IMG/VR virus record: IMGVR_UViG_2778261453_000010
Span: 1 to 4,281 of that record
Source: a virus
Lineage: Duplodnaviria; Heunggongvirae; Uroviricota; Caudoviricetes
Reading direction: 5' to 3' (one strand)
Length of the DNA stretch: 4,281 nucleotides
Shown here: positions 956 to 1,015 of the stretch, piece by piece
How positions within the stretch are numbered: position 1 is the first letter of the stretch
Layout: each line of letters begins with the position of its first letter
Made by a program: the position numbers and the translations under genes
Notes under the pieces: model-generated
Told to the model about the DNA's origin: nothing
Seen by the model: only the letters and a program-made list of their open reading frames with translations
Databases searched by the model: none

Positions 956-969
956 TCCCGGCACAGATA

Positions 970-986
970 AGAATAAGTCTTATTCT
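970..986. promoter_or_regulatory. Perfect 8-1-8 palindrome AGAATAAG-t-CTTATTCT (candidate operator, Fur-box-like) upstream of the lipoprotein gene
   Basis: Read directly from the sequence: 970-977 AGAATAAG, 978 t, 979-986 CTTATTCT. Together with GATA at 966-969, a 19-nt comparison within GATAAGAATAAGTCTTATTC matches about 13/19 positions of the Fur consensus GATAATGATAATCATTATC. It overlaps the putative -10 of the lipoprotein gene. Confidence 0.35.
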
Positions 987-1015
987 AACAATGCCACCCT
1001 GTCGGTCATCAATCC
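982..1015 (-). promoter_or_regulatory. Candidate sigma70 promoter for the lipoprotein gene (extended -10 TGTTAGAAT; weak -35)
   Basis: Minus strand reads ...TTGATGACCGACAGGGTGGCATTGTTAGAATAAGACTTATTC...; TGn-TAGAAT is the reverse complement of plus 982-990. The -35 is poor (TGACCG/TTGATG at non-ideal spacing). The call is by eye only. Confidence 0.3.

Follow-up and report, generated by a model that had tools for sequence, protein, structure and literature searches.

A possible weak, lineage-specific Fur operator across the promoter of a TonB-like lipoprotein gene in a lambdoid prophage

Is the perfect palindrome that lies across the predicted promoter of a small TonB-like lipoprotein gene an operator for Fur, which would place this prophage gene under the iron control of its host? 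The window, i.e., the whole stretch of 4,281 nucleotides analyzed here, is part of the late region of a lambdoid Escherichia coli prophage, where the minus strand carries, in this order, a holin gene, a YdfR-family gene, a lysozyme gene, Rz/Rz1, a 74-aa ORF, and the gene for the 108-aa lipoprotein (Table 1). The 108-aa protein matches Pfam TonB_C (E = 5e-15), its residues 26–104 match TonB C-terminal domains in the PDB at 3e-16, and its RefSeq entry (WP_000828070.1) is named ‘TonB family protein’. This entry also uses ATG 949 as its start codon, and we take ATG 949 to be the start here because an upstream ATG at 955 has been lost in 15 of the 73 loci of class A, the window's own class of relatives (see below).

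Table 1 Features of the window, with positions counted from its first letter
Feature	Position	Strand	Description
DUF3950 gene	291–491	+	Divergent from the TonB-like gene; start of an HNH endonuclease gene beyond
TonB_C lipoprotein gene	623–949	-	108 aa; signal peptide ending LVMG-C; TonB C-terminal domain
Shine-Dalgarno GGGA	956–959	-	6 nt before ATG 949; read from the sequence
Best Fur-matrix 19-mer GATAAGAATAAGTCTTATT	966–984		Axis 975; 13.5 bits; ranks 1 of 4263 window positions
Overlapping weaker Fur registers	969–990		Axis 978, 6.7 bits; axis 981, 3.8 bits
Inverted repeat AGAATAAG-T-CTTATTCT	970–986		Perfect 8-1-8; arms 970–977 and 979–986, 100% complementary; 1-nt spacer
Predicted extended -10 TGTTAGAAT	982–990	-	Hexamer TAGAAT 987–982 with TG extension; promoter scan
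Weak -35-like hexamer ATGACC	1004–1009	-	16-nt spacer; promoter scan; 9/12 matches overall
Tentative CRP-like TGTGA-N6-TCGGA	1040–1055	-	About -80 to -65 of the predicted start; consensus resemblance, no matrix score
74-aa ORF	1289–1513	-	
Lysozyme gene	2647–3180	-	

Of 5426 complete E. coli genomes, 417 have the TonB-like module, O157:H7, O103, O111, and O145 strains among them, and it is also carried by Stx1a phages, phage JLK-2012, and phage Lys8385Vzw. It is placed between the lysis and packaging genes in both HK97-type and lambda-type phages, and the flank at 1092–1600 is common to many Stx2 phages without the TonB-like gene, the homology stopping at ~1092. Such presence or absence of a gene among otherwise homologous phage genomes is the pattern expected of a moron; as to the promoter and terminator of its own that a moron would have, a promoter-like site was found, and there was no terminator-like call at 500–622. 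The DUF3950 gene (YlcI/YnfO family) lies beside the TonB-like gene in every class A locus examined and is absent beside the TonB-like genes of class B; its sequence suggests a small DNA-binding protein of the ribbon-helix-helix type. The literature searched, EHEC fur and iron transcriptomes included, yielded nothing on the expression, Fur binding, or function of the TonB-like gene, and the phiv142-3 paper deals with other genes.

On the presented strand 966–990 reads GATAAGAATAAGTCTTATTCTAACA, and the gene strand of the region reads TGTTAGAATAAGACTTATTCTTATC. A perfect 8-1-8 inverted repeat had been noticed at 970–986 in the preliminary description of this DNA, and a repeat search returned exactly this feature; the palindrome stops at 8-nt arms, positions 969 and 987 both being A. 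One copy is present in the window and one in the 50-kb phage genome that carries the module. Its chance occurrence was estimated with dinucleotide shuffles: 6% of shuffled windows contain a perfect palindrome whose arms reach 8 nt or more around a spacer of 1 nt (21% when spacers of 0–3 are allowed), while one with arms of at least 8 nt and spacers of 0–3 falls within the 150-nt upstream region in 0.4% of shuffles. The palindrome is unusual, though not extraordinary. A second perfect palindrome, 9-1-9 and longer than the one at 970–986, is found at 3507–3525 within the coding region of the YdfR-family gene (TAAAGTTAC-C-GTAACTTTA), and two perfect palindromes (arms of at least 8 nt, spacer 1) occur together in 0.3% of shuffled windows. 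In E. coli 14EC017, an IS1 is inserted precisely within the left arm of the palindrome (equivalent to window position 970/971), and the TonB-like gene is missing along with everything else beyond the insertion.

The palindrome overlaps a plausible extended -10 of the lipoprotein gene, as first proposed, with both the TAGAAT hexamer and the TG extension called in the promoter scan. The predicted promoter, ATGACC(1009–1004)-16-TAGAAT(987–982), is the only promoter-like site on the minus strand upstream of or near the TonB-like gene, in a window where promoter-like matches are no commoner than chance (5 for 4.7 expected). Relative to the predicted start, the palindrome spans about -11 to +6 and the best Fur 19-mer described below -9 to +10. 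At the position aligned to the tentative CRP-like element, class C reads TGTGA-N6-TCGGA and class B TGTAA-N6-TCAGA. The element itself, ~72 nt ahead of the predicted start, is part of a conserved AGTCNGATAAT block. All three classes, A, B, and C, also conserve a block upstream of the promoter at ~1092–1170 (minus strand, ACCGGGGTTTACCGCGTTAACGG…CCGGTGCGATGGTGGAAGAAGCCGG), which includes short stems and gave no match in Rfam.

Likeness to Fur sites was evaluated both by consensus counts and with a weight matrix. The count of about 13/19 to the classical Fur consensus GATAATGATAATCATTATC given in the preliminary description is exact for 966–984, but it is a background-level value: four 19-mers of the window reach 13, unrelated 13/19 19-mers also occur in K-12 control DNA, and the proven nohA and nohD sites reach 15–16 in overlapping registers. 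Similarly, the site matches the 7-1-7 motif at 9 of 14 positions, as is seen at 16 positions of the window, so that neither form of the consensus lifts it clearly above background. The matrix follows Chen et al. 2007 (PMC2189734), whose information matrix for a single Fur dimer (9-1-9) was reconstructed here: the coordinates of 18 E. coli sites proven by footprint or gel shift were taken from Tables 3 and 4 of that paper, and their sequences from K-12 DNA. All 18 training sites were recovered within 1 nt of the expected coordinate, with rebuilt versus published scores of 28.1 versus 27.4 bits for gpmA, 27.8 versus 27.4 for yoeA, 22.1 versus 22.3 for nohA, and 11.5 versus 11.5 for tonB, and of 25.1 versus 25.3 for nohB, which lies outside the training set. 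The training sites have a median score of ~22 bits, and their leave-one-out scores range from 6.5 to 27.7 bits.

With this matrix, the proposed site held up: 966–984 tops the window, the next-best score being 8.0 bits. Its 13.5 bits exceed those of the footprinted tonB (11.5) and fur (11.6) operators and are far below the training median, and both its rank and its relation to the training sites were stable under every pseudocount and background tried. The score falls inside the range of 12–26 bits, in which Chen et al. 2007 (PMC2189734) obtained a gel shift with 150 nM Fur for all 13 sites tested. Binding of Fur to 966–990 in vitro appears a somewhat better than even prospect. Positive walkers stand 3 bp apart at 972 (0.3 bits), 975, 978, and 981, together covering ~963–990, and amount to a single strong site with a weak partner 6 bp away. 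At the 3' end of the TonB-like gene (593–659), weak Fur-matrix matches are centered at 605 (7.4 bits) and 650 (8.0 bits); the former matches 11/14 of the 7-1-7 motif yet scores low with the matrix, and the equivalent site in one relative locus reaches 9.9 bits.

The perfect palindrome as such is, on the other hand, not what the matrix recognizes. The alignment in the preliminary description implied a register centered on the palindrome axis at 978, whereas the best Fur axis is at 975, 3 bp away, and the perfect symmetry is left unexplained by Fur. The palindromic half-site GAATAAG agrees with the Fur half-site TGATAAT at 4 of 7 positions, and the right half of the best 19-mer carries at core position +2 a G that is never seen in the 18 proven sites.

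How often would such a score arise by chance? In dinucleotide shuffles, a match of at least 13.5 bits is obtained at a frequency of 0.0375 for the whole window and 0.003 for 950–1100, and in 1–3% of cases if a perfect palindrome of the same arm composition is already given at that place. Real phage and prophage DNA holds several-fold more matches of at least 13.5 bits than shuffles predict: the 50-kb Stx1 phage Lys8385Vzw has six, of which the site at the TonB-like gene is the weakest, and in ~11 kb of prophage DNA from K-12 there are two matches of 14–16 bits that lack an explanation. From the empirical rate of ~0.03–0.08 matches of at least 13.5 bits per kb, a match in one given 50-nt promoter zone is expected at a few per thousand. 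The matrix also recovers the stx1 promoter (19.6 + 21.0 bits) in an Stx1 phage carrying the same module, which shows that it detects Fur-type operators on accessory genes of such phages. In Stx1 phage MT225100.1, the stx1 pair lies at 41847 and 41853, and there are three further matches, at 45735, 22925, and 41977: one of 18.8 bits stands 33 nt ahead of a small ORF that shortly precedes the holin gene, one of 17.3 bits is that at 22925, and one of 18.7 bits falls on the stxA start codon.

Relatives of the TonB-like locus sort into three classes, which differ at the candidate operator. Class A comprises the window and loci with a protein at least 89% identical, and the palindrome is characteristic of it. 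Class B (protein ~70% identical) includes phage 21, several metagenome contigs, and 73 IMG/VR loci whose upstream sequences are all but the same, and the single short contaminant contig found in a scan of species-representative genomes also belongs to it; it keeps TGTCAGAATAAGAC, after which a 14-nt gap removes the distal arm, and its upstream Fur-matrix score is at most -3.7 bits. Class C (72% identical, one contig) is of full length and diverged in sequence, with no palindrome and no Fur-like match. Within 400 nt either side of the start, classes B and C contain no Fur-matrix match of at least 5 bits, and there is thus no conservation of the site at the orthologous promoter in diverged relatives.

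The predicted -10, by comparison, is kept in all three classes (class B, TGTCAGAAT; class C, ..TTAAAAT), while the ATTGATGA block in the -35-like region is common to classes A and C and varies among class A loci. The promoter-proximal arm of the palindrome is common to classes A and B, and the distal arm is found in class A only. Judging from these alignments, the -10 and proximal arm represent family-wide promoter sequence, and class A alone has the distal arm, the palindrome, and the Fur-like score. Since classes B and C keep the -10 without a Fur-like site, iron control would not be a conserved property of the family. Iron control retained from tonB, one of the two origins first suggested, is ruled out: besides the lack of a Fur-like site in the ~70%-identical relatives, the upstream region has no similarity to the tonB promoter, a comparison of 240 nt of upstream sequence with the K-12 tonB promoter giving only 7–9-mers in common. 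Acquired control, the other origin suggested, is putative.

Taken together, we assign a probability of roughly 0.4 to the reading that 966–990 is a weak, lineage-specific, and physiologically meaningful Fur operator that spans the -10 and start site of the TonB_C lipoprotein promoter. In this weighing, the prior for any E. coli promoter is a few per cent, the chance of such a score at an unregulated promoter with such a palindrome is 1–3%, and a promoter under Fur control would be nearly certain to carry a site this strong or stronger; the outcome was then discounted for the absent conservation and for the heavy tail of scores in real phage DNA. The preliminary description as a whole is upheld in part, in its palindrome, its 13/19 count, its -10 overlap, and a matrix score that bears it out, and fails in the register of the palindrome and in the notion of retained control.

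From the sequence, we infer Fur binding, the transcription start, and an iron response, which could be combined as follows. In an iron-replete lysogen, Fe2+-Fur would occupy the 19-mer centered at 975 (-9 to +10), with the weaker registers at 978 and 981 extending over the -10, and bound Fur would occlude RNA polymerase and block open-complex formation; low iron would then derepress the lipoprotein gene, which would behave as a self-contained accessory gene (moron) of the prophage with its own promoter. During lytic growth, read-through from the late operon would bypass Fur control. Going by established TonB biology, the TonB C-terminal domain, anchored in the periplasm, would be expected to vie with TonB itself for the TonB boxes that outer-membrane receptors carry. 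Work by Howard et al. in 2001 reportedly leads one to expect that such a domain in the periplasm inhibits TonB-dependent uptake. This biological logic may cut both ways, as inhibition of TonB would be expected to be costly exactly under iron starvation.

About equally likely to a Fur operator is that the palindrome has no operator function at all, being a by-product of an AT-rich promoter and leader, with the 13.5 bits a false positive of a kind common in AT-rich phage DNA. The proximal arm would in that case be the end of the -10 followed by AAG, and the distal arm could have arisen by substitution or by template switching (quasi-palindrome correction), and the gene would be expressed from its own promoter, either constitutively or under the influence of CRP. 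The distal arm appears dispensable, because it is gapped in class B and diverged in class C and both classes keep the -10 and the gene. An inert site would also accord with the background level of the consensus matches, the several-fold excess over shuffles that real phage and prophage DNA shows in matches of at least 13.5 bits, and the longer perfect palindrome inside a coding region of the same window. Nor is there a significant conservation footprint: an 89%-identical relative differs nowhere from the window over the 43 nt at -44 to -2, but unbroken runs of 39–40 nt occur elsewhere in the same alignment. The palindrome is moreover broken by the natural variant G971A in 5 of the 73 class A loci, in which the Fur score stays at 13.1 bits.

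What speaks against an inert site is the coincidence it would require, in that the palindrome (0.4% in the upstream region) and the top Fur score would both have fallen exactly at the -10 and start site of a TonB-related gene, which is unlikely by chance. In addition, the 73 close loci, which are not independent of each other, vary at a single position of the palindrome; the stretch of 26 nt that begins with the TG extension and closes with the Fur 19-mer likewise has a single variable position, as opposed to about eleven in the flanking 42 nt (the -35-like element and spacer, and the leader). If the site is inert, a perfect promoter palindrome plus a consensus count like 13/19 would have to be regarded as weak evidence when taken alone.

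A clearly less probable alternative is that the 8-1-8 symmetry constitutes the operator of another dimeric regulator, of host or phage origin, which reads AGAATAAG half-sites, and that the resemblance to a Fur site is incidental. Such a regulator would explain what Fur does not, i.e., the perfect repeat, since the symmetry axis lies 3 bp from the Fur axis and the half-site reaches 4/7 to the Fur 7-mer, and a position across -10 and +1 is typical of repressor operators. However, no second copy or near copy of the palindrome turned up in the window, throughout the 50-kb Lys8385Vzw genome, or beside the K-12 DUF3950 genes ylcI and ynfO, so that a phage-wide operator family is not visible, and no such sequence lies near the start of the neighboring DUF3950 gene. 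The breakage in 5 of 73 loci weighs against this alternative as well, and no candidate regulator was found. Compared by eye with the consensus sequences of ArgR, Lrp, RcsB, MetJ, EvgA, PmrA, NagC, and CRP, the palindrome has the spacing of none of them.

A partial resemblance is to DeoR. Positions 983–990 (TTCTAACA) exactly reproduce one half of the operator TGTTAGAA-TTCTAACA that DeoR uses at deoP1 and deoP2, the extended -10 TGTTAGAAT equals the left 9 nt of the deo operator, and the deo operator also contains the deo -10. Unlike in the deo operator, the second half is missing here: the full match is 10/16 with the halves 9 bp apart, and the 16-bp operator TGTTAGAATTCTAACA, found with 0–1 mismatches at deoP1 and deoP2, aligns with 6 mismatches at best in the window, only the half at 983–990 matching. 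DeoR requires the full palindrome and several operators. Finally, it is very improbable that the class A-specific leader with its distal arm has its role in the RNA, where it might, for example, pair with a small RNA or with the ribosome-binding region: the distal arm does lie within the predicted 5' untranslated region and is pyrimidine-rich where the ribosome-binding region is purine-rich, but the predicted fold of leader and early coding sequence (-9.1 kcal/mol, z = -0.37) is no better than shuffles and leaves the leader segment unpaired, and the region has no Rfam match.

If 966–990 is indeed a Fur operator, it would resemble the weak E. coli operators of tonB, fur, and fecA, as a 19-bp AT-rich candidate site that overlaps promoter elements. 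Its score is in their range (tonB 11.5, fur 11.6, and fecA 19.8 bits), and the left half of 966–984, ATAAGAAT, is identical to that of the fecA site. Unlike these operators, the candidate has no strong partner 6 bp away (the register at 981 being the weak one of Table 1), and differs from proven Fur sites in its unprecedented core base, with no sequence homology to the tonB promoter.

A parallel in genomic setting is offered by the Fur sites upstream of nohA (Qin) and nohD (DLP12) in K-12, which also lie in prophage late regions and adjoin DUF3950 genes, ynfO and ylcI, homologous to window 291–491. These belong to a recurrent group of 22–26-bit Fur-matrix sites situated ~230 nt upstream of lambda-type small-terminase genes, near cosQ, in phage 21, several prophages, and the K-12 cryptic prophages; the nohA member of this group binds Fur, as a gel shift and a selection in vivo have shown (Chen et al. 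2007, PMC2189734). The nohA and nohD sites differ from the candidate in strength (22–25 bits) and in not being placed at a TonB-like gene. The window, which has HK97-type packaging genes, contains no equivalent of them and no cosQ-type Fur-matrix site.

A further parallel would be the stx1 Fur box, an operator for host Fur on an accessory gene of lambdoid prophages, and both loci occur in the same type of phage (Lys8385Vzw and the Stx1a phages). Calderwood and Mekalanos are said to have reported in 1987 that stx1 is under Fur control, and we take the Fur site in the stx1 promoter of Stx1 phages to be experimentally established. It differs in being a 6-bp-spaced pair (19.6 + 21.0 bits), where the TonB-like gene has a single predicted site of 13.5 bits. 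The novelty here, if the site is real, would be another host Fur operator on a prophage accessory gene, as for stx1 in the same phages.

As for the lipoprotein itself, Cor (phi80, N15) and Llp (T5) are small phage or prophage lipoproteins that interfere with a TonB-dependent receptor, and by analogy with them the TonB-like lipoprotein likely acts by interference with TonB-dependent receptors. Unlike Cor and Llp, to which it has no sequence relation, its TonB C-terminal domain would act on TonB boxes generally and not on FhuA alone. An evolutionary scenario that we regard as doubtful is that one lambdoid lineage, Stx1 phages included, evolved a Fur operator over the leader and -10 of a decoy lipoprotein, such that a general block of TonB-dependent receptors would be switched on only under iron starvation and would exclude TonB-dependent phages and colicins, while sister lineages such as that of phage 21 would express the decoy without iron control. 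If the Fur reading is true, the TonB-like gene would join stx1 as the second accessory gene of Shiga-toxin-type prophages to be controlled by Fur, and the expression of a phage-encoded TonB mimic would be tied to the iron status of the host. This would also provide a handle on the role of the protein, which may lie in the protection of the lysogen from TonB-dependent phages and colicins or in interference with iron uptake.
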